A stretch of DNA of 64,000 bases from Flectonema sp. DT1601 (lineage: Eukaryota), in assembly GCA_964019425.1 (NCBI GenBank), contig OZ025788.1, positions 1 through 64,000 of the forward strand, in the 5' to 3' direction. A program made the position numbers and the translations under genes. The notes under the pieces were generated by a model. That model saw only the letters and a list, made by a program, of their open reading frames with translations. It did not search any database and had not been told where the DNA came from. Positions 3,001-36,785 of this stretch are shown here, piece by piece. The stretch's first letter is position 1; every line of letters begins with the position of its first letter.

Positions 3001-6000
3001 CGGGTTTGCGGGTTTGCGGGTTTGCGGGTTTGCGGGTTTGCGGGTTTGCGGGTTTGCGGGTTTGCGGGTTTGCGGGTTTGCGGGTTTGCGGGTTTGCGGG
3101 TTTGCGGGTTTGCGGGTTTGCGGGTTTGCGGGTTTGCGGGTTTGCGGGTTTGCGGGTTTGCGGGTTTGCGGGTTTGCGGGTTTGCGGGTTTGCGGGTTTG
3201 CGGGTTTGCGGGTTTGCGGGTTTGCGGGTTTGCGGGTTTGCGGGTTTGCGGGTTTGCGGGTTTGCGGGTTTGCGGGTTTGCGGGTTTGCGGGTTTGCGGG
3301 TTTGCGGGTTTGCGGGTTTGCGGGTTTGCGGGTTTGCGGGTTTGCGGGTTTGCGGGTTTGCGGGTTTGCGGGTTTGCGGGTTTGCGGGTTTGCGGGTTTG
3401 CGGGTTTGCGGGTTTGCGGGTTTGCGGGTTTGCGGGTTTGCGGGTTTGCGGGTTTGCGGGTTTGCGGGTTTGCGGGTTTGCGGGTTTGCGGGTTTGCGGG
3501 TTTGCGGGTTTGCGGGTTTGCGGGTTTGCGGGTTTGCGGGTTTGCGGGTTTGCGGGTTTGCGGGTTTGCGGGTTTGCGGGTTTGCGGGTTTGCGGGTTTG
3601 CGGGTTTGCGGGTTTGCGGGTTTGCGGGTTTGCGGGTTTGCGGGTTTGCGGGTTTGCGGGTTTGCGGGTTTGCGGGTTTGCGGGTTTGCGGGTTTGCGGG
3701 TTTGCGGGTTTGCGGGTTTGCGGGTTTGCGGGTTTGCGGGTTTGCGGGTTTGCGGGTTTGCGGGTTTGCGGGTTTGCGGGTTTGCGGGTTTGCGGGTTTG
3801 CGGGTTTGCGGGTTTGCGGGTTTGCGGGTTTGCGGGTTTGCGGGTTTGCGGGTTTGCGGGTTTGCGGGTTTGCGGGTTTGCGGGTTTGCGGGTTTGCGGG
3901 TTTGCGGGTTTGCGGGTTTGCGGGTTTGCGGGTTTGCGGGTTTGCGGGTTTGCGGGTTTGCGGGTTTGCGGGTTTGCGGGTTTGCGGGTTTGCGGGTTTG
4001 CGGGTTTGCGGGTTTGCGGGTTTGCGGGTTTGCGGGTTTGCGGGTTTGCGGGTTTGCGGGTTTGCGGGTTTGCGGGTTTGCGGGTTTGCGGGTTTGCGGG
4101 TTTGCGGGTTTGCGGGTTTGCGGGTTTGCGGGTTTGCGGGTTTGCGGGTTTGCGGGTTTGCGGGTTTGCGGGTTTGCGGGTTTGCGGGTTTGCGGGTTTG
4201 CGGGTTTGCGGGTTTGCGGGTTTGCGGGTTTGCGGGTTTGCGGGTTTGCGGGTTTGCGGGTTTGCGGGTTTGCGGGTTTGCGGGTTTGCGGGTTTGCGGG
4301 TTTGCGGGTTTGCGGGTTTGCGGGTTTTGCGGGTTTGCGGGTTTGCGGGTTTGCGGGTTTGCGGGTTTGCGGGTTTGCGGGTTTGCGGGTTTGCGGGTTT
4401 GCGGGTTTGCGGGTTTGCGGGTTTGCGGGTTTGCGGGTTTGCGGGTTTGCGGGTTTGCGGGTTTGCGGGTTTGCGGGTTTGCGGGTTTGCGGGTTTGCGG
4501 GTTTGCGGGTTTGCGGGTTTGCGGGTTTGCGGGTTTGCGGGTTTGCGGGTTTGCGGGTTTGCGGGTTTGCGGGTTTGCGGGTTTGCGGGTTTGCGGGTTT
4601 GCGGGTTTGCGGGTTTGCGGGTTTGCGGGTTTGCGGGTTTGCGGGTTTGCGGGTTTGCGGGTTTGCGGGTTTGCGGGTTTGCGGGTTTGCGGGTTTGCGG
4701 GTTTGCGGGTTTGCGGGTTTGCGGGTTTGCGGGTTTGCGGGTTTGCGGGTTTGCGGGTTTGCGGGTTTGCGGGTTTGCGGGTTTGCGGGTTTGCGGGTTT
4801 GCGGGTTTGCGGGTTTGCGGGTTTGCGGGTTTGCGGGTTTGCGGGTTTGCGGGTTTGCGGGTTTGCGGGTTTGCGGGTTTGCGGGTTTGCGGGTTTGCGG
4901 GTTTGCGGGTTTGCGGGTTTGCGGGTTTGCGGGTTTGCGGGTTTGCGGGTTTGCGGGTTTGCGGGTTTGCGGGTTTGCGGGTTTGCGGGTTTGCGGGTTT
5001 GCGGGTTTGCGGGTTTGCGGGTTTGCGGGTTTGCGGGTTTGCGGGTTTGCGGGTTTGCGGGTTTGCGGGTTTGCGGGTTTGCGGGTTTGCGGGTTTGCGG
5101 GTTTGCGGGTTTGCGGGTTTGCGGGTTTGCGGTTTGCGGGTTTGCGGGTTTGCGGGTTTGCGGGTTTGCGGGTTTGCGGGTTTGCGGGTTTGCGGGTTTG
5201 CGGGTTTGCGGGTTTGCGGGTTTGCGGGTTTGCGGGTTTGCGGGTTTGCGGGTTTGCGGGTTTGCGGGTTTGCGGGTTTGCGGGTTTGCGGGTTTGCGGG
5301 TTTGCGGGTTTGCGGGTTTGCGGGTTTGCGGGTTTGCGGGTTTGCGGGTTTGCGGGTTTGCGGGTTTGCGGGTTTGCGGGTTTGCGGGTTTGCGGGTTTG
5401 CGGGTTTGCGGGTTTGCGGGTTTGCGGGTTTGCGGGTTTGCGGGTTTGCGGGTTTGCGGGTTTGCGGGTTTGCGGGTTTGCGGGTTTGCGGGTTTGCGGG
5501 TTTGCGGGTTTGCGGGTTTGCGGGTTTGCGGGTTTGCGGGTTTGCGGGTTTGCGGGTTTGCGGGTTTGCGGGTTTGCGGGTTTGCGGGTTTGCGGGTTTG
5601 CGGGTTTGCGGGTTTGCGGGTTTGCGGGTTTGCGGGTTTGCGGGTTTGCGGGTTTGCGGGTTTGCGGGTTTGCGGGTTTGCGGGTTTGCGGGTTTGCGGG
5701 TTTGCGGGTTTGCGGGTTTGCGGGTTTGCGGGTTTGCGGGTTTGCGGGTTTGCGGGTTTGCGGGTTTGCGGGTTTGCGGGTTTGCGGGTTTGCGGGTTTG
5801 CGGGTTTGCGGGTTTGCGGGTTTGCGGGTTTGCGGGTTTGCGGGTTTGCGGGTTTGCGGGTTTGCGGGTTTGCGGGTTTGCGGGTTTGCGGGTTTGCGGG
5901 TTTGCGGGTTTGCGGGTTTGCGGGTTTGCGGGTTTGCGGGTTTGCGGGTTTGCGGGTTTGCGGGTTTGCGGGTTTGCGGGTTTGCGGGTTTGCGGGTTTG

Positions 6001-9000
6001 CGGGTTTGCGGGTTTGCGGGTTTGCGGGTTTGCGGGTTTGCGGGTTTGCGGGTTTGCGGGTTTGCGGGTTTGCGGGTTTGCGGGTTTGCGGGTTTGCGGG
6101 TTTGCGGGTTTGCGGGTTTGCGGGTTTGCGGGTTTGCGGGTTTGCGGGTTTGCGGGTTTGCGGGTTTGCGGGTTTGCGGGTTTGCGGGTTTGCGGGTTTG
6201 CGGGTTTGCGGGTTTGCGGGTTTGCGGGTTTGCGGGTTTGCGGGTTTGCGGGTTTGCGGGTTTGCGGGTTTGCGGGTTTGCGGGTTTGCGGGTTTGCGGG
6301 TTTGCGGGTTTGCGGGTTTGCGGGTTTGCGGGTTTGCGGGTTTGCGGGTTTGCGGGTTTGCGGGTTTGCGGGTTTGCGGGTTTGCGGGTTTGCGGGTTTG
6401 CGGGTTTGCGGGTTTGCGGGTTTGCGGGTTTGCGGGTTTGCGGGTTTGCGGGTTTGCGGGTTTGCGGGTTTGCGGGTTTGCGGGTTTGCGGGTTTGCGGG
6501 TTTGCGGGTTTGCGGGTTTGCGGGTTTGCGGGTTTGCGGGTTTGCGGGTTTGCGGGTTTGCGGGTTTGCGGGTTTGCGGGTTTGCGGGTTTGCGGGTTTG
6601 CGGGTTTGCGGGTTTGCGGGTTTGCGGGTTTGCGGGTTTGCGGGTTTGCGGGTTTGCGGGTTTGCGGGTTTGCGGGTTTGCGGGTTTGCGGGTTTGCGGG
6701 TTTGCGGGTTTGCGGGTTTGCGGGTTTGCGGGTTTGCGGGTTTGCGGGTTTGCGGGTTTGCGGGTTTGCGGGTTTGCGGGTTTGCGGGTTTGCGGGTTTG
6801 CGGGTTTGCGGGTTTGCGGGTTTGCGGGTTTGCGGGTTTGCGGGTTTGCGGGTTTGCGGGTTTGCGGGTTTGCGGGTTTGCGGGTTTGCGGGTTTGCGGG
6901 TTTGCGGGTTTGCGGGTTTGCGGGTTTGCGGGTTTGCGGGTTTGCGGGTTTGCGGGTTTGCGGGTTTGCGGGTTTGCGGGTTTGCGGGTTTGCGGGTTTG
7001 CGGGTTTGCGGGTTTGCGGGTTTGCGGGTTTGCGGGTTTGCGGGTTTGCGGGTTTGCGGGTTTGCGGGTTTGCGGGTTTGCGGGTTTGCGGGTTTGCGGG
7101 TTTGCGGGTTTGCGGGTTTGCGGGTTTGCGGGTTTGCGGGTTTGCGGGTTTGCGGGTTTGCGGGTTTGCGGGTTTGCGGGTTTGCGGGTTTGCGGGTTTG
7201 CGGGTTTGCGGGTTTGCGGGTTTGCGGGTTTGCGGGTTTGCGGGTTTGCGGGTTTGCGGGTTTGCGGGTTTGCGGGTTTGCGGGTTTGCGGGTTTGCGGG
7301 TTTGCGGGTTTGCGGGTTTGCGGGTTTGCGGGTTTGCGGGTTTGCGGGTTTGCGGGTTTGCGGGTTTGCGGGTTTGCGGGTTTGCGGGTTTGCGGGTTTG
7401 CGGGTTTGCGGGTTTGCGGGTTTGCGGGTTTGCGGGTTTGCGGGTTTGCGGGTTTGCGGGTTTGCGGGTTTGCGGGTTTGCGGGTTTGCGGGTTTGCGGG
7501 TTTGCGGGTTTGCGGGTTTGCGGGTTTGCGGGTTTGCGGGTTTGCGGGTTTGCGGGTTTGCGGGTTTGCGGGTTTGCGGGTTTGCGGGTTTGCGGGTTTG
7601 CGGGTTTGCGGGTTTGCGGGTTTGCGGGTTTGCGGGTTTGCGGGTTTGCGGGTTTGCGGGTTTGCGGGTTTGCGGGTTTGCGGGTTTGCGGGTTTGCGGG
7701 TTTGCGGGTTTGCGGGTTTGCGGGTTTGCGGGTTTGCGGGTTTGCGGGTTTGCGGGTTTGCGGGTTTGCGGGTTTGCGGGTTTGCGGGTTTGCGGGTTTG
7801 CGGGTTTGCGGGTTTGCGGGTTTGCGGGTTTGCGGGTTTGCGGGTTTGCGGGTTTGCGGGTTTGCGGGTTTGCGGGTTTGCGGGTTTGCGGGTTTGCGGG
7901 TTTGCGGGTTTGCGGGTTTGCGGGTTTGCGGGTTTGCGGGTTTGCGGGTTTGCGGGTTTGCGGGTTTGCGGGTTTGCGGGTTTGCGGGTTTGCGGGTTTG
8001 CGGGTTTGCGGGTTTGCGGGTTTGCGGGTTTGCGGGTTTGCGGGTTTGCGGGTTTGCGGGTTTGCGGGTTTGCGGGTTTGCGGGTTTGCGGGTTTGCGGG
8101 TTTGCGGGTTTGCGGGTTTGCGGGTTTGCGGGTTTGCGGGTTTGCGGGTTTGCGGGTTTGCGGGTTTGCGGGTTTGCGGGTTTGCGGGTTTGCGGGTTTG
8201 CGGGTTTGCGGGTTTGCGGGTTTGCGGGTTTGCGGGTTTGCGGGTTTGCGGGTTTGCGGGTTTGCGGGTTTGCGGGTTTGCGGGTTTGCGGGTTTGCGGG
8301 TTTGCGGGTTTGCGGGTTTGCGGGTTTGCGGGTTTGCGGGTTTGCGGGTTTGCGGGTTTGCGGGTTTGCGGGTTTGCGGGTTTGCGGGTTTGCGGGTTTG
8401 CGGGTTTGCGGGTTTGCGGGTTTGCGGGTTTGCGGGTTTGCGGGTTTGCGGGTTTGCGGGTTTGCGGGTTTGCGGGTTTGCGGGTTTGCGGGTTTGCGGG
8501 TTTGCGGGTTTGCGGGTTTGCGGGTTTGCGGGTTTGCGGGTTTGCGGGTTTGCGGGTTTGCGGGTTTGCGGGTTTGCGGGTTTGCGGGTTTGCGGGTTTG
8601 CGGGTTTGCGGGTTTGCGGGTTTGCGGGTTTGCGGGTTTGCGGGTTTGCGGGTTTGCGGGTTTGCGGGTTTGCGGGTTTGCGGGTTTGCGGGTTTGCGGG
8701 TTTGCGGGTTTGCGGGTTTGCGGGTTTGCGGGTTTGCGGGTTTGCGGGTTTGCGGGTTTGCGGGTTTGCGGGTTTGCGGGTTTGCGGGTTTGCGGGTTTG
8801 CGGGTTTGCGGGTTTGCGGGTTTGCGGGTTTGCGGGTTTGCGGGTTTGCGGGTTTGCGGGTTTGCGGGTTTGCGGGTTTGCGGGTTTGCGGGTTTGCGGG
8901 TTTGCGGGTTTGCGGGTTTGCGGGTTTGCGGGTTTGCGGGTTTGCGGGTTTGCGGGTTTGCGGGTTTGCGGGTTTGCGGGTTTGCGGGTTTGCGGGTTTG

Positions 9001-12000
9001 CGGGTTTGCGGGTTTGCGGGTTTGCGGGTTTGCGGGTTTGCGGGTTTGCGGGTTTGCGGGTTTGCGGGTTTGCGGGTTTGCGGGTTTGCGGGTTTGCGGG
9101 TTTGCGGGTTTGCGGGTTTGCGGGTTTGCGGGTTTGCGGGTTTGCGGGTTTGCGGGTTTGCGGGTTTGCGGGTTTGCGGGTTTGCGGGTTTGCGGGTTTG
9201 CGGGTTTGCGGGTTTGCGGGTTTGCGGGTTTGCGGGTTTGCGGGTTTGCGGGTTTGCGGGTTTGCGGGTTTGCGGGTTTGCGGGTTTGCGGGTTTGCGGG
9301 TTTGCGGGTTTGCGGGTTTGCGGGTTTGCGGGTTTGCGGGTTTGCGGGTTTGCGGGTTTGCGGGTTTGCGGGTTTGCGGGTTTGCGGGTTTGCGGGTTTG
9401 CGGGTTTGCGGGTTTGCGGGTTTGCGGGTTTGCGGGTTTGCGGGTTTGCGGGTTTGCGGGTTTGCGGGTTTGCGGGTTTGCGGGTTTGCGGGTTTGCGGG
9501 TTTGCGGGTTTGCGGGTTTGCGGGTTTGCGGGTTTGCGGGTTTGCGGGTTTGCGGGTTTGCGGGTTTGCGGGTTTGCGGGTTTGCGGGTTTGCGGGTTTG
9601 CGGGTTTGCGGGTTTGCGGGTTTGCGGGTTTGCGGGTTTGCGGGTTTGCGGGTTTGCGGGTTTGCGGGTTTGCGGGTTTGCGGGTTTGCGGGTTTGCGGG
9701 TTTGCGGGTTTGCGGGTTTGCGGGTTTGCGGGTTTGCGGGTTTGCGGGTTTGCGGGTTTGCGGGTTTGCGGGTTTGCGGGTTTGCGGGTTTGCGGGTTTG
9801 CGGGTTTGCGGGTTTGCGGGTTTGCGGGTTTGCGGGTTTGCGGGTTTGCGGGTTTGCGGGTTTGCGGGTTTGCGGGTTTGCGGGTTTGCGGGTTTGCGGG
9901 TTTGCGGGTTTGCGGGTTTGCGGGTTTGCGGGTTTGCGGGTTTGCGGGTTTGCGGGTTTGCGGGTTTGCGGGTTTGCGGGTTTGCGGGTTTGCGGGTTTG
10001 CGGGTTTGCGGGTTTGCGGGTTTGCGGGTTTGCGGGTTTGCGGGTTTGCGGGTTTGCGGGTTTGCGGGTTTGCGGGTTTGCGGGTTTGCGGGTTTGCGGG
10101 TTTGCGGGTTTGCGGGTTTGCGGGTTTGCGGGTTTGCGGGTTTGCGGGTTTGCGGGTTTGCGGGTTTGCGGGTTTGCGGGTTTGCGGGTTTGCGGGTTTG
10201 CGGGTTTGCGGGTTTGCGGGTTTGCGGGTTTGCGGGTTTGCGGGTTTGCGGGTTTGCGGGTTTGCGGGTTTGCGGGTTTGCGGGTTTGCGGGTTTGCGGG
10301 TTTGCGGGTTTGCGGGTTTGCGGGTTTGCGGGTTTGCGGGTTTGCGGGTTTGCGGGTTTGCGGGTTTGCGGGTTTGCGGGTTTGCGGGTTTGCGGGTTTG
10401 CGGGTTTGCGGGTTTGCGGGTTTGCGGGTTTGCGGGTTTGCGGGTTTGCGGGTTTGCGGGTTTGCGGGTTTGCGGGTTTGCGGGTTTGCGGGTTTGCGGG
10501 TTTGCGGGTTTGCGGGTTTGCGGGTTTGCGGGTTTGCGGGTTTGCGGGTTTGCGGGTTTGCGGGTTTGCGGGTTTGCGGGTTTGCGGGTTTGCGGGTTTG
10601 CGGGTTTGCGGGTTTGCGGGTTTGCGGGTTTGCGGGTTTGCGGGTTTGCGGGTTTGCGGGTTTGCGGGTTTGCGGGTTTGCGGGTTTGCGGGTTTGCGGG
10701 TTTGCGGGTTTGCGGGTTTGCGGGTTTGCGGGTTTGCGGGTTTGCGGGTTTGCGGGTTTGCGGGTTTGCGGGTTTGCGGGTTTGCGGGTTTGCGGGTTTG
10801 CGGGTTTGCGGGTTTGCGGGTTTGCGGGTTTGCGGGTTTGCGGGTTTGCGGGTTTGCGGGTTTGCGGGTTTGCGGGTTTGCGGGTTTGCGGGTTTGCGGG
10901 TTTGCGGGTTTGCGGGTTTGCGGGTTTGCGGGTTTGCGGGTTTGCGGGTTTGCGGGTTTGCGGGTTTGCGGGTTTGCGGGTTTGCGGGTTTGCGGGTTTG
11001 CGGGTTTGCGGGTTTGCGGGTTTGCGGGTTTGCGGGTTTGCGGGTTTGCGGGTTTGCGGGTTTGCGGGTTTGCGGGTTTGCGGGTTTGCGGGTTTGCGGG
11101 TTTGCGGGTTTGCGGGTTTGCGGGTTTGCGGGTTTGCGGGTTTGCGGGTTTGCGGGTTTGCGGGTTTGCGGGTTTGCGGGTTTGCGGGTTTGCGGGTTTG
11201 CGGGTTTGCGGGTTTGCGGGTTTGCGGGTTTGCGGGTTTGCGGGTTTGCGGGTTTGCGGGTTTGCGGGTTTGCGGGTTTGCGGGTTTGCGGGTTTGCGGG
11301 TTTGCGGGTTTGCGGGTTTGCGGGTTTGCGGGTTTGCGGGTTTGCGGGTTTGCGGGTTTGCGGGTTTGCGGGTTTGCGGGTTTGCGGGTTTGCGGGTTTG
11401 CGGGTTTGCGGGTTTGCGGGTTTGCGGGTTTGCGGGTTTGCGGGTTTGCGGGTTTGCGGGTTTGCGGGTTTGCGGGTTTGCGGGTTTGCGGGTTTGCGGG
11501 TTTGCGGGTTTGCGGGTTTGCGGGTTTGCGGGTTTGCGGGTTTGCGGGTTTGCGGGTTTGCGGGTTTGCGGGTTTGCGGGTTTGCGGGTTTGCGGGTTTG
11601 CGGGTTTGCGGGTTTGCGGGTTTGCGGGTTTGCGGGTTTGCGGGTTTGCGGGTTTGCGGGTTTGCGGGTTTGCGGGTTTGCGGGTTTGCGGGTTTGCGGG
11701 TTTGCGGGTTTGCGGGTTTGCGGGTTTGCGGGTTTGCGGGTTTGCGGGTTTGCGGGTTTGCGGGTTTGCGGGTTTGCGGGTTTGCGGGTTTGCGGGTTTG
11801 CGGGTTTGCGGGTTTGCGGGTTTGCGGGTTTGCGGGTTTGCGGGTTTGCGGGTTTGCGGGTTTGCGGGTTTGCGGGTTTGCGGGTTTGCGGGTTTGCGGG
11901 TTTGCGGGTTTGCGGGTTTGCGGGTTTGCGGGTTTGCGGGTTTGCGGGTTTGCGGGTTTGCGGGTTTGCGGGTTTGCGGGTTTGCGGGTTTGCGGGTTTG

Positions 12001-13765
12001 CGGGTTTGCGGGTTTGCGGGTTTGCGGGTTTGCGGGTTTGCGGGTTTGCGGGTTTGCGGGTTTGCGGGTTTGCGGGTTTGCGGGTTTGCGGGTTTGCGGG
12101 TTTGCGGGTTTGCGGGTTTGCGGGTTTGCGGGTTTGCGGGTTTGCGGGTTTGCGGGTTTGCGGGTTTGCGGGTTTGCGGGTTTGCGGGTTTGCGGGTTTG
12201 CGGGTTTGCGGGTTTGCGGGTTTGCGGGTTTGCGGGTTTGCGGGTTTGCGGGTTTGCGGGTTTGCGGGTTTGCGGGTTTGCGGGTTTGCGGGTTTGCGGG
12301 TTTGCGGGTTTGCGGGTTTGCGGGTTTGCGGGTTTGCGGGTTTGCGGGTTTGCGGGTTTGCGGGTTTGCGGGTTTGCGGGTTTGCGGGTTTGCGGGTTTG
12401 CGGGTTTGCGGGTTTGCGGGTTTGCGGGTTTGCGGGTTTGCGGGTTTGCGGGTTTGCGGGTTTGCGGGTTTGCGGGTTTGCGGGTTTGCGGGTTTGCGGG
12501 TTTGCGGGTTTGCGGGTTTGCGGGTTTGCGGGTTTGCGGGTTTGCGGGTTTGCGGGTTTGCGGGTTTGCGGGTTTGCGGGTTTGCGGGTTTGCGGGTTTG
12601 CGGGTTTGCGGGTTTGCGGGTTTGCGGGTTTGCGGGTTTGCGGGTTTGCGGGTTTGCGGGTTTGCGGGTTTGCGGGTTTGCGGGTTTGCGGGTTTGCGGG
12701 TTTGCGGGTTTGCGGGTTTGCGGGTTTGCGGGTTTGCGGGTTTGCGGGTTTGCGGGTTTGCGGGTTTGCGGGTTTGCGGGTTTGCGGGTTTGCGGGTTTG
12801 CGGGTTTGCGGGTTTGCGGGTTTGCGGGTTTGCGGGTTTGCGGGTTTGCGGGTTTGCGGGTTTGCGGGTTTGCGGGTTTGCGGGTTTGCGGGTTTGCGGG
12901 TTTGCGGGTTTGCGGGTTTGCGGGTTTGCGGGTTTGCGGGTTTGCGGGTTTGCGGGTTTGCGGGTTTGCGGGTTTGCGGGTTTGCGGGTTTGCGGGTTTG
13001 CGGGTTTGCGGGTTTGCGGGTTTGCGGGTTTGCGGGTTTGCGGGTTTGCGGGTTTGCGGGTTTGCGGGTTTGCGGGTTTGCGGGTTTGCGGGTTTGCGGG
13101 TTTGCGGGTTTGCGGGTTTGCGGGTTTGCGGGTTTGCGGGTTTGCGGGTTTGCGGGTTTGCGGGTTTGCGGGTTTGCGGGTTTGCGGGTTTGCGGGTTTG
13201 CGGGTTTGCGGGTTTGCGGGTTTGCGGGTTTGCGGGTTTGCGGGTTTGCGGGTTTGCGGGTTTGCGGGTTTGCGGGTTTGCGGGTTTGCGGGTTTGCGGG
13301 TTTGCGGGTTTGCGGGTTTGCGGGTTTGCGGGTTTGCGGGTTTGCGGGTTTGCGGGTTTGCGGGTTTGCGGGTTTGCGGGTTTGCGGGTTTGCGGGTTTG
13401 CGGGTTTGCGGGTTTGCGGGTTTGCGGGTTTGCGGGTTTGCGGGTTTGCGGGTTTGCGGGTTTGCGGGTTTGCGGGTTTGCGGGTTTGCGGGTTTGCGGG
13501 TTTGCGGGTTTGCGGGTTTGCGGGTTTGCGGGTTTGCGGGTTTGCGGGTTTGCGGGTTTGCGGGTTTGCGGGTTTGCGGGTTTGCGGGTTTGCGGGTTTG
13601 CGGGTTTGCGGGTTTGCGGGTTTGCGGGTTTGCGGGTTTGCGGGTTTGCGGGTTTGCGGGTTTGCGGGTTTGCGGGTTTGCGGGTTTGCGGGTTTGCGGG
13701 TTTGCGGGTTTGCGGGTTTGCGGGTTTGCGGGTTTGCGGGTTTGCGGGTTTGCAGGTCTGCGGGT
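1..13765. repeat. Telomere-like 8-bp tandem satellite (GGGTTTGC)n, ~1,720 units, open at the left window edge
   Basis: Read directly. Only three internal irregularities (~2890 gcggcgg, ~4326 extra T, ~5131 missing G) and degenerate terminal units (gcaggtctgcgggt, 13752-13765). Confidence 0.99.
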
Positions 13766-14461
13766 ATCGGTAACTACCCCCCGATATGTGAAAGCAGGCT
13801 TGGCAAATGTAGGATCGCCTGCAACAGTTGCTGTTAGAGAATGCATAATCTCAGGTGCCGCCATATGTCCCATCGGCAACCTGGTTAGCTCAAACCACTC
13901 CCCTCGCTCATCCTGGAATCTGAAATATTTCCTAGAGCGCTCAGGTATGGAAACCTGGTAAAACCCCGTCTTCAAGTCCCATTGGGATGATGTCTCCCTC
14001 GTCACTTGAGAGAGGTACTGAGCAATGTGCTCCAAGGGAACCTTCGGCTTGTACCCGAGTTCGTGCATCATCAAGTTGGCCTCCTTCGTCCACAAGATGA
14101 ATCGCTGCTGTGTTCCAGTTATCCGTTCTTCAGGTATTGTAAAGGGTATTGATTCCAATATCCCGGGGCTGCTTGTTTGGGTTGCAACCCCTGCCTGTAC
14201 TAGCCGGCGTGCATGCTGAGACTGCAGACAAGACTCCCTATGACTCTTTTTATACTGATGGCTTTGGTGAGTACCTTGCCGACACGGGTTGAACGTGAGG
14301 TCCCATACCTCTTCAAACCTCCTGCGTGTCCCATCAGTCATCATCCGTTTTACCTCTTGAACGTCAATGGTCCCCACTTCCTTTACGTGTAGAGGCGTCG
14401 CCCTCTCTTCTTCGGTTGAAGGGAGGCGAGTGGACTTCGACTTCCGAGTGAAGTTCTGCAT
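13766..14461 (-). pseudogene. Truncated reverse transcriptase of copy 1; the frame runs on into the satellite
   Basis: Manual translation MQNFTRKSK...QRFILWTKEAN...QWDLKTGFYQV...FELTRLPMGHMAAPEIMH...GVVTD, then (TRKPANPQ)n. It lacks the WIDN motif and RNase H that follow in copy 2. Confidence 0.88.
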
Positions 14462-14484
14462 AAGTCTCCGCGCAGTTCTTGGAA

Positions 14485-15468
14485 TTACAAATGTTGGGTT
14501 ATGCGGCTTGTGTTCAGGGAGAGAGCCAGCGACCTGTCCGACCCTGCATATCTTAACGTCGTTTCTGATATCTGCTGGTTTGCCGTTTCGTGTTTGGCTA
14601 GTCGACTTATGAGCATCAGCGGAATAACTAATCCTGTCTGTTTCTTCTCGAAAATGAACTTTATTGCACCGCGTTTTATGCTGTGAGCACTGTAATTTTC
14701 CATGCGAGAATCCTTCTTCCAAAGTCCTGTGAGCTTTGCAGTGTCGACTTTTGTTAAACGATCGAAGAATCCCAACCTCATGATGGCTCTGTATATCTCC
14801 TCCGTCCATCTTCCAGTGATTACCGCGAACCTTGAAGCCGTGTACGGATTCTCCCTCTTTCCCTTCGGAATCTGGTTCCAGTCCACAATTACTGTTAAAG
14901 GGTCGCATTGAATGAAGCTGCCCGAGGACAGCGCCGCGACCTCCCCCCAGCGAGACATTGTTTTCCAGGCAATCATTGCGGCGGTTGAAACCCCTAGCTC
15001 CTGTGTTTGACACCATTCTTCCAGGATTCCCCTTGGGATCGGAGTTGCTTGTGACTCGGGCACCGTAGCACCGTCTGCCCTTAAGGCCACCTGAAGGCTC
15101 CTGAGGGGTTGGTTTTCCATCCCGAGGTGTTTCATAATACCCGACAATGCCTTTGCGTAGTTTAGTAGACTTTGTGACTTCGCCCCTGTAGCGGTTACGA
15201 ATAAGACCGCAGAATTTGCATCCATGGGTAGGCTCCTGCCGGTGACCCACTTCACATACCTCGACCATAATCGTTTTCTCTGGTCGATGGTAGACACCGC
15301 CCACATCTTTCTTACGATGGCGCGTACCCGCTTCTCTGCTGCCTTTATGGTGACTTCGTCTTCTGATTGAGTCCTTCTTGTTGGTCTGCGTTGCAAGATC
15401 TGTAAAGTTGCTTGCTCCATTATTCCTTTTCCTTTGACCAACTCGTCTTGCCGCATTTTGGCGATCAT
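14485..15468 (-). CDS. Tyrosine recombinase of TATE-like copy 1 (327 aa)
   Basis: YR catalytic pattern: R (KTMSRWGE), HxxR-like (HSIKRG), H (AKHE), Y (TTLRY). Strong similarity to 19021..20055. Confidence 0.88.
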   Translation of the reverse strand: MIAKMRQDELVKGKGIMEQATLQILQRRPTRRTQSEDEVTIKAAEKRVRAIVRKMWAVSTIDQRKRLWSRYVKWVTGRSLPMDANSAVLFVTATGAKSQSLLNYAKALSGIMKHLGMENQPLRSLQVALRADGATVPESQATPIPRGILEEWCQTQELGVSTAAMIAWKTMSRWGEVAALSSGSFIQCDPLTVIVDWNQIPKGKRENPYTASRFAVITGRWTEEIYRAIMRLGFFDRLTKVDTAKLTGLWKKDSRMENYSAHSIKRGAIKFIFEKKQTGLVIPLMLISRLAKHETANQQISETTLRYAGSDRSLALSLNTSRITQHL

Positions 15469-15540
15469 GCTCCCGGTTTTTTTGCTTAATAAAGTTATAC
15501 TTGGCCGGGTCCAAGTAAACTTCCTTTCCCGTACTGCGAT

Positions 15541-16357
15541 TCAATTCTTCCGCACCTGCTGGGGCCAACGGCCTGGACCTAAAAAAGCCTTCGTTGGCTT
15601 TGGTTTCGGGGTCCAGGTGTTCTTATTTTTCTTCGAAGCTTTTTGAATTGACCTGTCGATGTAGTCGTGTTGATTGGCTTCCATTTCCGTCAATACATCG
15701 CTGAGCCTGGCCCCGTACAACATATCCTTGTTGTACACGAAGCAGCGATAGACTCCTATTGCTTGTATTCTGGCCTTGGCGAGATAATTCGTCTGCAATA
15801 ATGGCGTGTCCCTGCTCCAATGCCTGTTGACGGTTTCTCACGTTAACAGTTTCATGCTCCAATACAGTCTGTCTCTGCCCCGCTGAATTCAAAGCTTGCG
15901 AGGTAACTTGTTCAAGAACCGCTTGCCTCTGCACGGTGTTTGATACCACTTGGCTCGCACCCTCCATAACATGGTGAGACTCCGTACGGGAGACGGGTAA
16001 ACCCTCCGTCACCCCACATGCTCGTAGCATTTCATCGAATCTCTGCACATTCCTGTTTCGCAGATGTGAGAGCATAACTTCCTTTGGCCTCATCGCTATT
16101 CCTTGCAACGAGTCTCTCGAAACACCCAGGAAGGCCATCAACATATCATTAATGATGCTCTCAGCTTGATGCTGTACACACCATCCCCCTAAGTTCATTC
16201 TTACGTCATCCATTTTGTATGTACCTCGTTTTAACTCCTCTTCGCCGAAAGTGCTTTTCCAAGCATCTTCCAAACTTGAAGGAAATCTAAAATCGTACGT
16301 ACTTATTACAGTCGAGGGGGATGGTTGGTCGATTATCATAGGCGTTTGTTGATCCAT
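15541..16357 (-). pseudogene. gag-like ORF1 of copy 1, split over two frames (15623..16357 and 15541..15798)
   Basis: Lies upstream of the YR. The second frame (SDVLTEMEANQHDYIDRSIQKASKKNKNTW) resembles the copy 2 ORF1 C-terminus (ADIITELEVDDNDRLLKAMLNVEKKKRPFTW). Confidence 0.6.
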
Positions 16358-16416
16358 TTTAAATTATTAAATTAATTTAAAGATGCAAGAATGCCTGGAA
16401 GGGCAGATAGGCATAA

Positions 16417-16509
16417 ACGAATCAATCGTAATGCACTATAAAAAGGATGGAAGAAACAAATGGTCGTATTATACTATAGGCTCGACGAATCAATCATGTT
16501 GCACTATAA
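16417..16509. repeat. Imperfect 25-bp direct repeat in the 5' non-coding region of copy 1
   Basis: acgaatcaatcgtaatgcactataa (16417-16441) versus acgaatcaatcatgttgcactataa (16485-16509). Confidence 0.75.
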
Positions 16510-16638
16510 TAAAATAAATGGTAAGACTGCTCACATTAAGAACTGATAAGACAATGGATTGCTACATAGAAATTTGTATCATAAGAATAAAGTGGTGAAC
16601 TACAGCGCTGATCCTGAGAGATTCCTATATTGGTGTTA

Positions 16639-16729
16639 GGGTTTGCGGGTTTGCGGGTTTGCGGGTTTGCGGGTTTGCGGGTTTGCGGGTTTGCGGGTTT
16701 GCGGGTTTGCGGGTTTGCGGGTTTGCGGG
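16639..16729. repeat. Short (GGGTTTGC)11 array between copies 1 and 2, overlapping a single TTAGGG (16636-16641)
   Basis: Read directly. Confidence 0.97.
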
Positions 16730-17369
16730 GAATCACCCTTATCAGTCTGCCATATTTATTTGAAACTATAGAACAAGGTATTGTAATTTGTATGAATGAA
16801 CTAATGTAAAGATAATTACACGATATGCTAATGCATAGGGGTGGTTACTGAGTAATGGCGCTTGGCCACAACCCGGCGTGGTGGGAAGGGTGGGTGGGAT
16901 TACTTTATCTATTAAGGGAGTACGAAAAGGAGAAAGAGAGCCTATAGAAGTAATGAGAGATGAAATTCGGATACTTTAAATGTAGCGAAACGTAAATATC
17001 AAAATGTTTATTAACGATCGTAAGTATCGCTGATGCTCCTTTCTCGAACGTGTTGCGTCTTATGTCTGAAACAAAATGTGCTGTTTTTCTAGATGTTTTC
17101 TTATTCTTTATTTTATATTGCGTACGAGTTGTTTATGCTTTCTTTTGGATAAACGGTAATGTATTTATAAACGATGAGAGGTAGACATGGCCGACGGATG
17201 GTTGATTCCCACGTAACGGGGGAATCACCCTTATCAGTCTGCCATATTTATTTGAAACTATAGAACAAGGTATTGTAATTTGTATGGATGAACTAATGTA
17301 AAGATAATTACACGATATGCTAATGCGTAGGGGTGGTTACTGAGTAATGGCGCTTGGCCACGACCCGGC
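16727..17369 (-). repeat. Split direct repeats B1 (17219-17369) and B2 (16727-16877) around a unique A-like segment
   Basis: 151-bp copies with 3 mismatches, offset 492 bp. This matches the B1-A2-B2 3' architecture of Ngaro/PAT-type YR retroelements. Confidence 0.9.
17200..17230. other. Putative tyrosine-recombinase att/circle-junction site
   Basis: GGTTGATTCCC-ACGTAACGG-GGGAATCACCC: 11-bp inverted arms (10/11) around a 9-bp spacer, exactly at the B1/A boundary. Confidence 0.6.
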
Positions 17370-19003
17370 TACCACCACCACCGCGCAAGTTGAGGAATCG
17401 CCCCAGCGCAAGTTTTGCATCAGCAAGTAGCTTTGGCTGGTTAAGATTAGTTGGAGTGCCCCGTGAAGGATAGTCTGCAGGATTGCATTTTGTTGACACC
17501 CATGATATTGTGTATGCGCAACCTATCCTTTGTAAGTGATTGAGAGATCCTATCACCTCCCTGTTTAGATCGTAAGAGCGTGAGGACATCCCCTTTTTGG
17601 TTGAGAAGGCAACTGTAGTATTATCAACGTAGATATCGATGTGAGATGCTTCTTCAACTGTCTGCAGCGAGAGATGCAGCGCCTTAGCCTCAAGAATGTT
17701 AATGTGCTTCTCGCCCTCTATCGTAGTCCAGCGTTGCCCCAGAATCTTCATCTCCGCTTGTTTAGAAATAATAACTGCACCCCATCCGGTGTTAGAAGCG
17801 TCAACAAACATCATAATAGAGCCGTCATCAGAGAAGGACTTGATCTCTCGAACCTGTGATACCTCACCTACCCACTGCTCTATCTGTTTCCTGACCGAGA
17901 TCGGAATGCTAATGCACGTTAACGTCGCAAACTCCCCGATTGAGTGAATTTGTTATTCTTCCAAAGAACTTTAACGCATACCAGAAGTTACCTGGGTGAA
18001 CCCTCGTAATTGCAGAAGCATGCAGAAGCCTCCCTGCTAAGCTTTCAACACCCCCTGCTGTAGGATTAGTAAGATCTGAGTCCTGGACCTTGTTGCGTAG
18101 CTTCTTCGCTACCGATACCGTATGGTCAAGATGATTAAAATGAACACCCAAAAAGTCATAGTCTGTAGCAGCCCGGATAGTTTCAGCTGCTTTCCATGTC
18201 ACATTACAGTCAGCTGCTATTTTGTTAACACCATCAGTAGCTGCCTCGACCTTATTAAGATCACCAGATATTCTAATATTATCTATCCATATGTCAGTTA
18301 CGACACCTTTGTAAGTAAACTCAGGCTTAGCATATGTTGGATCGCCTGCCACTGTAGCAGTCAAAGTGTGCATGATCTCGGGCGCTGCTACGTGTCCCAT
18401 TGGCAGCCTCGTTAGCTCAAACCAATTATGTGCACTATTTTGAAACCTGAAGAATCTTTTCGATGCCTGAGGGATCGGTACTTGGTAAAAGCCTGTTCTT
18501 AAGTCCCATTGGGATGCGACCTCCTTCTCCGTCCGATCAAGATAACATGAAATGTGCCCAAGTGGAACTTTCGGATCATAGCCTAAGCTCCTAGCCTGCT
18601 GGTTTGCCTCCCTCGTCCATAATATAAACCTTTGCCTGTTTGCTCCTTCCCGCTCTTCTAATACAGTAAATGGGATCGATTCGAGTTCTCCAGGGCCGCC
18701 TGCCTGGGTAGCGATACCTGCCTCTACAAGTTTGTTCGCATGCTCAGTCTGTAATTCTGACCTCTTGTTTCCCTTTCTGTAGCTAACCTTGCCTTTCCTT
18801 GGGTTAAATGTTAAGTTGCAGACTTCTTTAAATCTTTTGGGGGTTTCTTTTGTCATCATCTTCTCCACCTTCTGAACCCCCAGCGGCTTAACAGGGTGAA
18901 CGTGAAGTGGACTCGATCGCTCCTCCTCCGTCGTCGGTATTCTAGTGATCTTCGACTTTCGTGTGAAGTTTTGCATCACCCGCCTAACCATCGTTGCACT
19001 CAT
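17320..19003 (-). pseudogene. RT + RNase H of copy 2, with one frameshift near 17910-17945
   Basis: RT motifs QWDLRTGFYQV, LTRLPMGH, WIDN, DFLGV. RNase H motifs FVDAS..GWG, HINILEA, VDN, NPADYPSR lie in a different frame (17320..17814). Likely ATG at 19003. Confidence 0.87.
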
Positions 19004-19020
19004 AGGTGATTTGTTACCCG

Positions 19021-20055
19021 CTAGGTTTGTAGAGATACCGCGATGCTCTTGTCGGACCCTGCGTACCTCAGCGTTGTTTCTGAGACTTGTTCGTTTGACG
19101 TCTCGTGCTTCGCCAGTCTGCTGATGAGATACGTTGGGATGGCCTTCCTCGGGTTCCCCGCGTTGAAATTGAATATGTGTTGGATCGCACCTCTCTTCAC
19201 ACTGTGGCCGCTGTAGCCCTTCATAGCTGGGTCCCGCTTCCACAAGACCCCGACCCTCGCCGTGTCGGTGCTGCAAAGGGTTTCGAACGGCGAGAGCTTC
19301 CTTATAAGTCTGTTGATTTCTTGGACTTGGTCGCCACTGATCACAACGAATCTTGACGTTGTGTAAGGGTTTCTCTTCTTTCCCTTTGGTGTTTGCCCCC
19401 AATCTATTATAACTTGCAGTGGATCTAGGTTTATGAATTGCACTGACGATAACTTTGCCACTTCCCCCCATCGGGACATTGTCTTCCATGCTATGATCGC
19501 TGTCGCTTTGAGGTCGGGCTTTTGTTCCAACGCCCACTGCATCAGTACTTCCTTTTTGATAGGTGTTGCTTGGCTCCCCGGAATCGCTGCACCATCCGCC
19601 CTTAGAGCTGCTGCTAGGCTTCTGAGAGGCTGATTGTCCCTTCCTATCTTTTTCATTATTGCCGAGAGACCCTTCGCATAATTCAGAAGGCCCTGAGGCT
19701 TTGCCCCTGTTGCAACTGTAAACAGAACCGCTGTGTCCGCATTGTTCGTCAGGTTCCGCTCGATCGCCCATTTCATGAACCGCGACCATAATCGTTTTCT
19801 CTGTTCTAGCGTTGACGGTGCCCACATCCCTTTCACTACGTTGTCCAGCTTTCCTAGTGCCCTGTTGACTGAGACCGGATCTTCTGGATGTGTTACCTTT
19901 GTGGGCTGCCTCCTCAAGATTCCTAGAACTGATTCCGCCATCACACCATTTCTTGTTATTAAGTCTCCGTGATGCGTTGCTCCAATTTGTTTTCCCAGTT
20001 TGTTGTACGGGGTAACGCCTGGCTGGGCCCAGGCGCCCCCACCTGCTGTTGGCAT
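19021..20055 (-). CDS. Tyrosine recombinase of copy 2 (344 aa; stop appears 7 codons early relative to copy 1)
   Basis: KTMSRWGE, HSVKRG, AKHE, TTLRY motifs. Ends SLQT*RVTNHL* versus SLNTSRITQHL* in copy 1. Confidence 0.88.
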   Translation of the reverse strand: MPTAGGGAWAQPGVTPYNKLGKQIGATHHGDLITRNGVMAESVLGILRRQPTKVTHPEDPVSVNRALGKLDNVVKGMWAPSTLEQRKRLWSRFMKWAIERNLTNNADTAVLFTVATGAKPQGLLNYAKGLSAIMKKIGRDNQPLRSLAAALRADGAAIPGSQATPIKKEVLMQWALEQKPDLKATAIIAWKTMSRWGEVAKLSSVQFINLDPLQVIIDWGQTPKGKKRNPYTTSRFVVISGDQVQEINRLIRKLSPFETLCSTDTARVGVLWKRDPAMKGYSGHSVKRGAIQHIFNFNAGNPRKAIPTYLISRLAKHETSNEQVSETTLRYAGSDKSIAVSLQT

Positions 20056-20337
20056 TCAGTTTTGCTTCCTGGGGGTTTGAGCCCCACGTCCGTTTCCCGA
20101 GAGCGGTCTTGACGGCTTCTTCCATGTAAACGGTCTTTTCTTCTTCTCAACATTAAGCATTGCCTTCAAGAGCCTATCGTTGTCATCCACTTCCAGCTCT
20201 GTAATGATATCGGCCATTTCAAGGCCTCTGTCGATCCAACCGGTCTGCATACGCAATGTCGTCAAGATACGATTCCCAAGGCTCACCATCTCATCCATTT
20301 CTTGCCATAGAGTAACCCGTTCCGCCACACGGATCCC
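20056..20337 (-). pseudogene. C-terminal remnant of gag-like ORF1 of copy 2
   Basis: W-x-E..V-x-LGN..L..LR-x-Q motif shared with copy 3. Truncated by the satellite at CCC/GGG. Confidence 0.65.
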
Positions 20338-20390
20338 GGGTTTGCGGGTTTGCGGGTTTGCGGGTTTGCGGGTTTGCAGGTTTGCAGGTT
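20338..20390. repeat. Short (GGGTTTGC)~6.5 array with degenerate GCAGG units at its right end, between divergent copies 2 and 3
   Basis: Read directly. Confidence 0.95.
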
Positions 20391-21810
20391 ATTTCAAGCA
20401 ATTGAAAAACTTTATACCCGGGTTCGAATATGTAGTAGCGTGGGATGAAAACCCCCACTTTGTAGAGCTAGGTAACGATTTGTTGGAGCAGCTGCGGATT
20501 CAGCATTACTTCTGCGAGGATAGGAAGAGAGACCCGAGCAGGAGATGATAATGAAAGTGGCATCAGAAGACCAGTAGGAGTAGCTAAGAGGAACAAACAT
20601 GTGAAGCTGCAGCAACCAAAATGGAAAGGGGGGAAGACGACCTGTTTCCACATCCCCAGCATCGGGAAACGGGAGAGGGTTCGCGAAGTGACCAGCCGAC
20701 CGGACCCTGCAAGTACCCAAGACGAAAGTTAGAGTACAGGAGTATGCAAGTATTAGAAACACCCCCATTACCAAGGTTGAAGTATTTAAGGAAACGGTAT
20801 TGAAGAACGGCCGACCACGAACAAGGTTAAGAAGATCCATAAGTTCGATCGTTTGAGGCCCGGACAACAGTGTAAAACCCACAGCCCGAGGATCCCCCAG
20901 CGGAAGGGAGATGGAAGTAAATTCAGACAGAGAAACGGGAGAGATAAACCCCACACCAATCACAACAACGGATACAAGCAGCATGCCGAGGACCCCGTTA
21001 CATACATAGAAGCGACAGAAAGACTTCAAGAAACACTAGAGAAGATGTGGGCTTCAAAGGCAACAGCAAGCAGGCGGAACCTGTGGAGAAGATTTCGGGA
21101 AAGGGAGAAACCAGCAAATGCAAGCTCGGCTGTTCTGTTCGTGATGGCGACAGGTGTAGCAGTGCAGGGGCTTCTCTCTTATGCAAAGAGTCTACCTGCA
21201 GTGATGGGGAGAATCGGAATAGAAAACGGACCCCTGTTGAGCTTAGCTGCAGGGCGAACGGGGCGGCAATACCACTAGAACAGGCAGCACCAATGACAAG
21301 TTTCGACCTGGTGGATTGGGCAAGGGGGCAAGACATGAAGACCCACTTGGCAATGCTAGTGTGCTGGAAGGCTGCATCAAGATGGGGCGGGACCAGTTCA
21401 TCCCTGTAAGAGATCATTATTGATTGGTCCCGCACGCTGAAGGGAAGGAGGGCAAACCCTTACTTGCCAAGCAGATGGGCGGTGATAAAGGGGAATCGCA
21501 CAGAAGAGATAAGGATTTTGCTGGGTGCGATAGGGGAGTTCAAAAGAGTTGATAGATCAAAGAATGCGAGCGAACACGCACAGAACAAAGAGCACGCGCA
21601 TCCCCATAACGAAGGAGGAGATGTCTTCACCACTACAGGAGAGAATAATTATGCCTGAGCAGAAGAGGGGGAGGACTGCCGAAGTGTTTGTAGATGCCTC
21701 ATTGCAGGGATGGGGAGGTGTCATTGTTTGGAAAACGAGTGAGTTGGAAATTCTTAGTGCGGCATGGCCTGCTGGTGAAGACCGACATATAAATACCCTT
21801 GAAGCTCTTA
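20391..21810 (+). mobile_element. Decayed, internally deleted TATE-like copy 3 in the opposite orientation
   Basis: gag remnant (VAWDENPHFVELGNDLLEQLRIQ); frameshifted YR pieces (KMWA, SAVLFVMATG, LLSYAKSL, WKAASRWG, NPYLPSRWAVI); RT N-terminus (KSTRIPITKEEMSSPL) fused directly to RNase H (VFVDASLQGWG, HINTLEA). Confidence 0.85.
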
Positions 21811-24800
21811 GACACCCAATGCTGACCACCTTTCCATCTGGGTTGACAACACTACGTGCTTTTAGGAAGAATGTGTGTTCACTCACACAGTCTCAACAGG
21901 TGTTTGATAACTGCGATTGAATGCCTTTTAGTTTTGAAATGTCCCTACCCCTTGCCAGGGTTTATCATGAAGCTAAACCCTGCAGATATTCCTTCTTGAG
22001 AGGACACGGAACGAGAGCGAAGGTTGAACAAGCATTGGGGTCGTTTACCTACTTGTGTTGGAAGTGTTCTATCGTGTTGGAAATGTTCTCTATTTTATTG
22101 AAATATGTCCCATTCATCAACAATAATCAAGTTTACTCTCCACACCACTTTGTTGCACTTTTTCTTGTTTGTCTGATTCCTGTGGTCACCTTCAGCTGTG
22201 TGGGTTATCAGCTTTGGTTTCGGCCTTTCGGTTCGGGAGCATGCAAGCTTCACCCCATGGTCTGGCCATTCCAACACCATACTATTCTCACCTCCCAGAA
22301 AGCCTATTTTGAGGACCCACTTGCCATTAATTACTTTGATCAGCTTCACCACAATATCTTTTGTTGCGAAGCTCGCAATTATCTGGTCCACTGGGACTCC
22401 CTTGGGATACCCTCTACCAAGAAGTATCCTTTTTCACACCTGTTCCCCACAGGTGTTCTCTACTCCGTAATTTCAATGTTTTTAAGTCCATTCTCCCCAG
22501 CCAGATCACACTTCATGGTGATTTTCCTTAGCCTGAAACAGCCCTCCTCTTCCGGAGGCACTTAAAAATAGTCTTAGATTAGTTTCTTCTATCTTGAGAA
22601 GAATCGAGAAGGTTTTAAATTCAGGAAGTTTATCGTTTGTGTACTTATGTCGGGACGATTTATAGATGTTATAATTCTTTGAAACGATGCTTATACATCA
22701 CACAATTTTGTGTGTTGAAATCAGATACGCCTTTATACTCAGCTTCAGTCAAAGCCCTCACGGTGGTTTCAGCAATAACAACGATTCCATCAGATACTTT
22801 CCAGTCAGCCATTTTGTGTATGTCACAATAAAGTACAGAAAGTAGCTATAACGCAAGCCACTATCCAATCACCCACTAACCTAACTGTCGTTTTCATGCT
22901 CTTTCCCAGGTGCAGTATAGGAAGGCTAATTACTTTTTACGAAACACTCTCGTCTTTCATTCATTGTTGTGTGTAATTATCTCAGCAGTAACTCTCGTCA
23001 TCCAATCTGATGAAGGAATCGGGACTGGTGTCTGTTGTTAGGGAGCTGCAGTATCTCTAGCAGGATTGGCCCACCATACACCAAGAAAACCGACACTCCT
23101 GATCGCGAACACGTCGGGTCTCATCTTTTTGATTTTTAATCGGCTCATCAGGAGTCCCGACCGTCTGTACTTTCATTGTAGAGATCGCGTTGGGGATTCA
23201 GACTTCTCAGATTGAGTCTTAAAGGACTGACATATATTAATTGTTCTGAAAATCAAAAAAAGAGTTAATTGCCACTTCCAGACTTTGTCAATTGAGTTCA
23301 CCAAAGTTTCTGTTTACACAAACACAATTCCATTCTCCTCTCAAAAATTGTGTAATTGCACCAGGTCTTGCCAGTTTAAAAAAAAACATAAAGGCAGAAA
23401 ACAGTTGATTAGTGTCAACAAAACTCCAAAAGTGTCCAACAATGCCATCGTCGATACGGACCTTAGGAGACCAGAATGTATTTCTATTTCTTGAAAAGAA
23501 CCAACGCCTAAGTATCGTTGCAACGTCCTCAGGACGAGCAACAGGAAAGGAAATGACGACAATCGGCACCGGCTAATGGAACGGAGGGGAATAAATATAA
23601 AAGAAAATCAAAGCACAAAGTACACGAAGTCCGGAATGGCTTTCAGGAAAAAAACATCAAAAGTTATGCCGGCAGATTGATCCCTTTCAATTTTTTCCTT
23701 TCTCACGGATTTTTTCTTTCCTTTTTTTCTTTTGAAAGCAAACAAAACGATAAACGCAACATACAAAATAGAAACGGAGAAAGAAATCCAGCAATGGTCT
23801 GTGCCCCGTGAAAAAAAAAAAAAAAAAAGACGGGAAAAAAAAATTATTTTTTCATGTAAAACCTAACTGATACAACAAAGGGGCGCAGATGTTACGAAAC
23901 CTGCACTGATGATTTGATAAAAAGATTTTTCACGACGCTAGGATGAGAACTACCAACAACCCGTTCAACAGAACGCACACTGATATTGCTACTCAACGCT
24001 ATCATCGCAAACCTTTCCACTATTTTTCTAACCAAAACCAGGAGTTTAGGTTTCAAACAAAACTAAAAGAACCGACAAGAAAGGTTTGGAAACAACTGCA
24101 CAACCACATCAACAAAACATTAATAAGAAAATAGTTTGTATTAGCTACGAAGGAGTTTAAAGTCATGCTGCCGAACACCAACTGAGTTGGTACAAACTAT
24201 TGTGAAAATTCCATAAAAAAGACGTCGTTTCCTTAGAAAGACGTCTGAAAAAAAGAAAATAGACCCGAAAAGGAACTACGATGACACCATTCCTAATTTT
24301 TTTTTTTCTCAGCGCAAGAAGAATTAGCCCTGAATGACATTAGGATTAGAGAATAAGAAGAAAAAAAAAAGAGAACAGAGAAACTCCTTGAAGTTAAAAA
24401 TAGGAAAAAAGAAGTTCCCTCACCATCTCAGAGAACGCAGATTGCTGAACGATTCAGAATCTGGAAATGCATTTTTTTTTCCTCTCGCAATGACATCACG
24501 AGAAGCTCGCAACTACAAGAAAGTGGCTGCAGTTGTAAGGGAAAAAAACAAAGAAAAAAGAACCGAAGAAGAGAGTATAAGGGAATTCTAAGGAACACTA
24601 AACGACTTCCCCATTTCACCAACTACACAACAGAAATCAGTGGCGGGTTAACGACATATGAGAAAGGAAAAAAATGAAAAAAACAGAAAAGAAGATACTC
24701 CTCAGAAGAAGTATTGCTTCATAATTATTATCAATTCACAACACCTTTGATTCACCAAGGATTTGAGATTAGGAGGGGAGCTCATAATAATGGCTCACGG

Positions 24801-30022: not shown

Positions 30023-30094
30023 GGCTTAGTGGTCTAGTGGCATGATTCTCGCTTTGGGTGCGAGAGGTCCAGAGTTCGATTCTCTGCTGAGCCC
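30023..30094 (+). tRNA. tRNA-Pro(UGG): tRNA-Pro, anticodon UGG
   Basis: Acceptor stem GGCTTAG/CTGAGCC; D arm TGGTCTAGTGG; anticodon arm CTCGC-TTTGGGT-GCGAG; T arm CAGAG-TTCGATT-CTCTG. Confidence 0.95.
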
Positions 30095-36010: not shown

Positions 36011-36785
36011 TTTAATGATGAGATAAGTCTGATTGAGTTAATGTAAATATTAATATCCTACTCAAGTCATCAAAGATAACACCAGGAACACTTCACACGT
36101 ACATCACACGCTGTTATTGTAAAAGGTAAATAATTATCAACTTAACGAGTTATAGATTCACAAGACACACACATGGCATAAAACTGATGTAGGGATAACT
36201 TGGGGAGCCTGGGGAAGAGCTCAAAAAAAAAAAAAAATCACAAAACACTTTTTTCAAAAAAAAAAAAAAAAGGGGGGGGGAAAAATAATACCATTAACGG
36301 CAGGGAAGCGGATTTTCATTTTCTTTTTCAGGTACAGAAGTTGTGTCGTACTGCTCCATGTGGGGTTACTAGTGTGGGAACAAAACAATGGGGGTACGTC
36401 TTCTGAAATGCTTCACAACTTCGCATTCCTTCAGAACGACCAAGAGAAGCACGACCAACGAGATGCCGAGTAGTAAAAAGGCTAACAAGAATTTTCCTTT
36501 TAAAAAGAGTAGTTAAAAAAAAATACTTATCGAAGAGAGGATTCTTCGACAACGATATTTAACTACACAATAAATAAAAATATCAATTCTGAACCTGAGG
36601 TGGTGTTTGGGATGGAGAAAGTACACAGCGGAACAGGTCCGTAAATCGAACGTCTCGCAAAAATCAGTTGTTGCTCTAAAGGATGCAACATTAAAGGCTA
36701 AATGATGAAGGAAGGCACCGTACCAATTGCTTACGAGCCTTCAACAAATTTAAGACAACGGACAGAATACAAACAAAATAATATT

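Follow-up and report, generated by a model that had tools for sequence, protein, structure and literature searches.

Dead copies of VIPER-like tyrosine recombinase retrotransposons joined to a tandem GGGTTTGC repeat, their likely target in a diplonemid

The first 64,000 nucleotides (nt) of contig OZ025788.1 from the diplonemid Flectonema sp. DT1601 (assembly GCA_964019425.1; hereafter the window) contain three retroelement copies that lie between or after tandem arrays of GGGTTTGC. In these elements, open reading frame 1 (ORF1) is accompanied by a tyrosine recombinase (YR) and by a reverse transcriptase (RT)/RNase H (RH) ORF that overlaps the YR. We consider it rather probable that these are dead copies of several families of VIPER-like YR retrotransposons, which favour (GGGTTTGC)n as an integration site and enter it through conservative recombination at a CCC/GGG core. 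Relatives of VIPER are thus likely to home in on a repeat that is not known as a target, and if the targeting is true, Euglenozoa evolved repeat-specific insertion by YR elements on two occasions, which differ in core and polarity. The integration of YR retrotransposons with split direct repeats has so far been largely a model. The reciprocal junctions described below, together with a Cre-like dyad, name a predicted site and a target, which makes the reaction testable in vitro, and several of the families are intact. In addition, the array is a candidate for a diplonemid telomere or centromere.

Junctions between the elements and the array

All five junctions in the window connect array to element DNA, as an earlier note on this sequence had claimed for five element boundaries, but only some of them are element ends: three are cuts inside ORFs, one is a proven terminus, and one is a probable terminus. 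At 13765, copy 1 ends within RT at the catalytic motif, beyond which the intact family P0194 continues. Positions 20337 and 20390 cut copies 2 and 3, respectively, both inside ORF1. Copy 3 lies on the strand opposite to copies 1 and 2, and the back-to-back copies 2 and 3 are broken within ~8 codons of one homologous ORF1 place.

Copy 2 carries split direct repeats in the order B1-A2-B2 at its 3′ end (Table 1), and B1 and B2 differ at 3 of 151 positions. Judged by this comparison, position 16729 is the proven terminus of copy 2, and the intact 3′ end described in the earlier note does join the array. The possibility that the array itself forms part of the element's terminal repeat was ruled out, since the array is absent at B1|A2. 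The C run counts five at B1|A2, three in the array, and four at B2|array (16729). The core is therefore a C/G run (five C versus four C) and not the shared CGGG proposed earlier, which gives the wrong register in the protein P0255 described below.

Position 16638 is probably the 5′ terminus of copy 1. A distance of 281 nt separates the array from the ORF1 start of this copy (16357), and the N-terminus of this ORF1 matches relatives in Diplonema papillatum weakly (E ~1e-4 to 2e-5). The earlier placement of a 5′ end of copy 1 at the 11-unit array is plausible from this ORF1 start but unproven, since copy 1 has lost its own A2 and no copy in the window retains both ends for an A1/A2 comparison. 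A resemblance of the copy 1 leader to A2 of copy 2 was ruled out (score 61 versus a shuffle mean of 65). A lone TTAGGG at 16636-16641 straddles the junction of copy 1 and array, perhaps by coincidence or perhaps as the remnant of a canonical telomeric target.

Array-joined proteins on other contigs

Stop codons are absent from both strands of the array, so gene calls can run through it. When 298 proteins were screened for array translations, six passed a loose filter: four contain chance 4-mers, and two, P0231 and P0255, contain long translations of the C strand. The translation of the G strand was found in 0 of the 298 proteins. P0231, on a contig of 393,303 nt, begins as the RT of family P0013 (98%), which is cut and followed by ~19 array units and a 17-residue C-terminal peptide. 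This peptide has no match in the window and is possibly the start of repeat A of another family. P0255 begins as the RT of family P0190 (99%), likewise cut, and continues into ~8 units and then into a tail of 34 residues identical to the start of repeat A of copy 2. Neighbouring elements are separated by only 8-19 units.

The array-to-A join of P0255 reads N-P-V-T-W, whereas a CGGG core predicts K-P-V-T-W. With five C at B|A against three in the array, and with four at the 16729 junction, a reciprocal exchange must leave four C at the other junction, which gives N-P-V-T-W, as in P0255. The register of P0255 is hence the exact reciprocal of the 16729 junction, and the two registers point to conservative recombination at a CCC/GGG core. 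Overall, junctions with the array are seen for four families, on three contigs. The earlier description of YR retrotransposons that are linked to the array and comprise at least three diverged lineages is strengthened by the reciprocal 5′ junction on a second contig and by two more families on the same array strand. Different families often lie on contigs of the same size (515421, 476221, 134371, 837035, and 393303 nt), hinting at one element cluster per chromosome.

Predicted recombination site and integration model

An imperfect dyad is centred on the B1|A2 junction of copy 2. Its z of -4.8 (0 of 200 shuffles) is the lowest among 89 windows along the copy, the next being -3.9. The dyad suits two recombinase arms flanking a core, and we regard it as the predicted recombinase site. 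In the DIRS model, a circle recombines through a 3-bp core without target duplication (PMC3266345).

Following the DIRS/Ngaro model, the RNA would be copied into a circle whose B|A junction would correspond to the dyad. YR would then join the circle to the array at a single CCC. No target duplication would arise, and the inserted element would end up co-oriented with the C-rich strand. Later deletions from either end into the flanking array could have produced the junctions at 13765 and 20337 and those in P0231 and P0255, and the junction at 20390 could reflect a later inversion or fusion. YR and the ORF1 protein are candidates for the array recogniser.

Targeting, passive accumulation, and misassembly

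The occurrence of four families on three contigs, with a spacing of 8-19 units, favours targeting over passive accumulation, and we hold this preference with moderate confidence. In the alternative, which we consider unlikely, the recombinase needs CCC only, and copies land anywhere but more often in the CCC-dense, gene-free array, where they persist. CCC/GGG occurs at a density of 0.125 per base within the array, against 0.0166 for the 41.4 kb of unique sequence, a 7.5-fold difference, and 13% of insertions would be expected in the array if it made up 2% of the genome, or 28% at 5%. All three termini that are known or probable adjoin the array (p ~0.002 at 2% and 0.02 at 5%, values that are affected by ascertainment), which passive accumulation does not readily explain. 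Nor does it readily explain the joining of four families to the array, and the spacing of 8-19 units suggests repeated hits near earlier insertions. The earlier claim that the element targets the satellite is likely on the strength of the reciprocal junction and the four families, but these do not separate it from passive accumulation.

Several observations weigh against preferential integration. Each array unit has one CCC on one strand, so a CCC core alone fixes phase and polarity, besides enriching the array 7.5-fold per base. The termini were found because they touch the array, and the count of termini therefore has no denominator. Foreign, non-array N-terminal tails occur in 8 of 59 family members, and at least two of these tails (those of P0162 and P0167) have no match in the element of the window; element fragments with non-array neighbours thus exist in other DNA as well. 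The dyad arms are unlike the array, sharing only GGG with it, and none of the four distant relatives from metagenomes that carry B repeats shows a dyad at the B1 end (z -2.3 to 0.5). P0255 is a predicted protein that could be a spliced model, and the third base of its Pro codon is unseen. The origin of proteins such as P0231 and P0255 in the same assembly is deduced from 93-99% identity. Finally, the polarity of copy 3 is the opposite one.

Chimeric joins of collapsed repeat and element fragments in the assembly would also place elements beside arrays. The inverted junction at 20390 would be a candidate for such a join. However, there are no N gaps here, the short arrays are far below long-read size, and an independent contig carries the exactly reciprocal junction, and we consider misassembly very improbable.

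Nature of the GGGTTTGC array

The homogeneity of the array and its G3 tracts suggest the action of telomerase. It is quite possible, though we hold it only tentatively, that GGGTTTGC serves as the telomeric repeat of the host and that the elements and arrays here are a telomeric stack with an inversion or fusion at 20390. Telomerase healing would then account for some of the junctions, 20337 among them. This explanation is compatible with preferential integration. The near-perfect 13.8-kb array has G3 tracts and, at its right-hand end only, variant units, and a TTAGGG array is absent from the window. The polarity at 20337 fits the addition of a G strand to a broken end, the polarity of copy 3 is as expected at an ordinary left telomere, and TATE clusters in telomeres provide a precedent (PMC2696322). 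On the other hand, the G-rich strand of the long array is directed at the genes, and a left telomere would have the reverse orientation, should base 1 be the chromosome end. At 13765 and in P0231 and P0255, a C strand is added to a 3′-cut element, which is not expected of telomerase. Kinetoplastids use TTAGGG (PMC8311970), and the enrichment of VIPER at centromeres in Trypanosoma cruzi (PMC13508446) makes a centromeric satellite as plausible. The array may belong to a telomeric stack that was inverted or fused, to a centromeric satellite, or to a satellite within which the assembly breaks off.

Two further proposals extend the telomeric explanation. It is doubtful, but conceivable, that GGGTTTGC replaced TTAGGG at diplonemid chromosome ends and that a VIPER-like radiation evolved telomere-repeat targeting independently of TATE, stacking there. 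Chromosome ends with reversed polarity, in which the C-rich strand is extended, would explain the three C-strand-capped breaks but seem most improbable. A literature search, which covered mostly open papers, gave no description of the GGGTTTGC repeat or of diplonemid telomere or centromere DNA. PMC13598402, which is indexed with one occurrence of 'telomeric repeat', may be relevant to this point. No centromere DNA was found in the available text of a preprint on the diplonemid kinetochore (10.1101/2024.08.06.606595). The array pattern had 0 matches in viral contigs and 24 short matches in prokaryote genomes, which we regard as incidental.

Relatives and classification of the elements

The RT search returned 817 cluster representatives at E≤0.001, and the nearest named relatives are proteins of Diplonema papillatum and Flectonema neradi. 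The cluster of copy 2 has 10 members, two from the window and eight on seven other contigs. All eight of the latter read through the frameshift near 17917, with 92-98% identity. The cluster of copy 1 has seven members, of which four are full length. The intact outside members and the full-length relatives of copy 1 indicate that the families are young. In a FastTree phylogeny of 122 RT/RH rows, the window copies group with diplonemid sequences in a clade of 52 rows (support 99) that excludes those of T. cruzi. The T. cruzi proteins P0245 and P0250 belong to the same broad radiation in this tree, which holds no named VIPER, TATE, or Ngaro references.

P0245 is the only kinetoplastid RT among 102 hits, and no TATE-named protein is among them. 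The RT of the copies is 33% identical over 291 amino acids (aa) to P0250, a member of the P0245 cluster. Since T. cruzi carries VIPER and lacks TATE (PMC6681497), we infer that P0250 is VIPER. The Atlas groups the RT with Euglenozoa clusters and lists hepadnavirus P as a look-alike, and a likeness to hepadnavirus P is reported for the VIPER-like RNase H (PMC6681497). The RT alignment found 0 relatives among viral contigs. Relatives were found at 31 metagenomic loci, mostly distant ones (20-42%), and none of the 31 has a GGGTTTGC or TTAGGG array. Split direct repeats are seen in five of these relatives (L003, L017, L018, L024, and L028); at L017 both flanks are present, and neither is a tandem array. 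Taken together, the elements are a young multi-family diplonemid radiation whose RT appears closer to that of T. cruzi VIPER than to that of Leishmania TATE.

VIPER of T. cruzi, a member of the VIPER-like superfamily in the order DIRS, has the same ORF1-YR-RT/RH order with an overlap and the same B1-A2-B2 3′ end (PMC6681497). A YR of ~340 aa and a length of ~4.4 kb are further points of agreement, and P0250, taken as VIPER, shares the RT motifs RLP(M/V)G and WIDNI. In contrast, repeat-specific insertion is not described for VIPER in the literature consulted, and the window elements form part of the separate 52-row clade.

The likeness to TATE of Leishmania (Viannia) lies in a YR retrotransposon with split direct repeats, head-to-tail clusters, and a fixed phase in a short G-rich repeat (PMC2696322, PMC6681497), and in a short core common to element and target. 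The insertion site of TATE is GGGTTA, of which TT is duplicated (PMC2696322). The sense 5′ end of TATE follows the G strand of TTAGGG, and its ORF2 has ~980 codons (PMC6681497 supplements), within a range of ~600-1000 aa for the long ORF2 (PMC6681497 supplement 9). Here the target is GGGTTTGC, the core is CCC, and the C strand precedes the 5′ end. Neither a GGG^TTA insertion with a shared TT nor a long ORF2 is present, the YR being VIPER-sized. The RT motifs of TATE (LIDN and TLPTG, translated by eye from PMC6681497 supplements 2, 9, and 13) also differ from those found here. Since strand polarity and core are unlike those of TATE and the one kinetoplastid RT hit is from T. cruzi, the earlier suggestion of a TATE-related family with a retargeted recombinase is unsupported, and convergence is likelier. 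The element is probably best filed as VIPER-like, with repeat targeting convergent with that of TATE.

The gene order of Ngaro elements is RT/RH-YR, whereas here YR precedes RT/RH. Ngaro elements share the split direct repeats (PMC8547959). In the DIRS model, integration likewise uses a 3-bp core without duplication, but DIRS1 has inverted terminal repeats (PMC3266345, PMC8547959). The closest named relatives, with 41-47% RT identity, are the 'TATE DNA transposon' ORFs of D. papillatum, TATE-like ORFs that are mentioned together with a 281-member orthogroup (PMC10161547). Their termini, target, and telomere repeat are not described in the available text of that paper.

Organization of the copies and the window

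The gene order ORF1-YR-RT/RH, with overlapping YR and RT/RH ORFs, gives an element length of ~4.4 kb as the sum of parts. The YR ORFs are 344 and 351 aa from stop to stop, and copies 1 and 2 both retain the catalytic motifs. In its predicted structure (predicted local distance difference test score, 73), the YR resembles Cre and Cre derivatives (best E 8e-5), and PF00589 was found on the relative P0007. Pfam gave no match on the YRs of the window and only sub-threshold matches on RT/RH, and the YR alignment had no match among the sequences of solved structures. The P0208 family includes P0288, which apparently comes from the same contig as the window and is absent from the window (best 79%); a further copy of this family probably lies elsewhere on the contig.

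Table 1 Arrays, element copies, and their parts in the window
Feature	Position	Strand	Remarks
GGGTTTGC array, 1720 units	1..13765	+	Reaches window start; G-rich strand points to genes
Copy 1, VIPER-like	13766..16638	-	5′ end probably intact; 3′-truncated within RT; 98.5% aa to family P0194
Copy 1 RT ORF, overlaps YR	13766..15544	-	Cut at D-I-W-I-D-N motif
Copy 1 tyrosine recombinase ORF	14485..15540	-	R-K-HxxR-H-Y motifs present
Copy 1 ORF1, gag-like by position, frameshifted	15541..16357	-	
Copy 1 5′ leader, candidate A1, 281 nt	16358..16638	-	
GGGTTTGC array, 11.4 units	16639..16729	+	Between copy 2 3′ end and copy 1 5′ end
Copy 2	16727..20337	-	
Copy 2 repeat B2, true 3′ terminus	16727..16877	-	Last three C common to array
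Copy 2 repeat A2	16878..17218	-	Start matches array-joined tail of P0255
Dyad centred on B1|A2 junction, predicted recombinase site	17187..17245	.	Lowest folding z of 89 windows
Copy 2 repeat B1	17219..17369	-	
Copy 2 RT/RNase H ORF	17320..20146	-	One frameshift near 17917; 98% aa to intact P0009
Copy 2 tyrosine recombinase ORF	19021..20055	-	Predicted fold matches Cre
Copy 2 ORF1 remnant	20056..20337	-	5′-truncated at array
GGGTTTGC array, 6.8 units	20337..20390	+	Two variant units at right end
Copy 3, inverted	20388..22046	+	5′-truncated in ORF1, RT core deleted, frameshifted; ~75-87% aa to families P0208/P0209

The long array contains three indel variants inside and two variant units at its right end. 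Past 22046, the window has no GGGTTTGC array and no match to ten family proteins that were searched against it. The remainder consists of intron-poor eukaryotic genes and a long interspersed nuclear element (LINE). This LINE-like element (57116-63034, minus strand) appears intact, with an uninterrupted ORF of 1374 aa for APE endonuclease-RT-RNase H and an upstream ORF of 597 aa, and is followed by an A-rich tract (56956-57048). Two tandem paralogous membrane-anchored proteins with a common TPVPPT linker are encoded at 35012-37988 (minus strand), and a tRNA gene at 30023-30094 (plus strand) is the sole Rfam match in 13700-64000.

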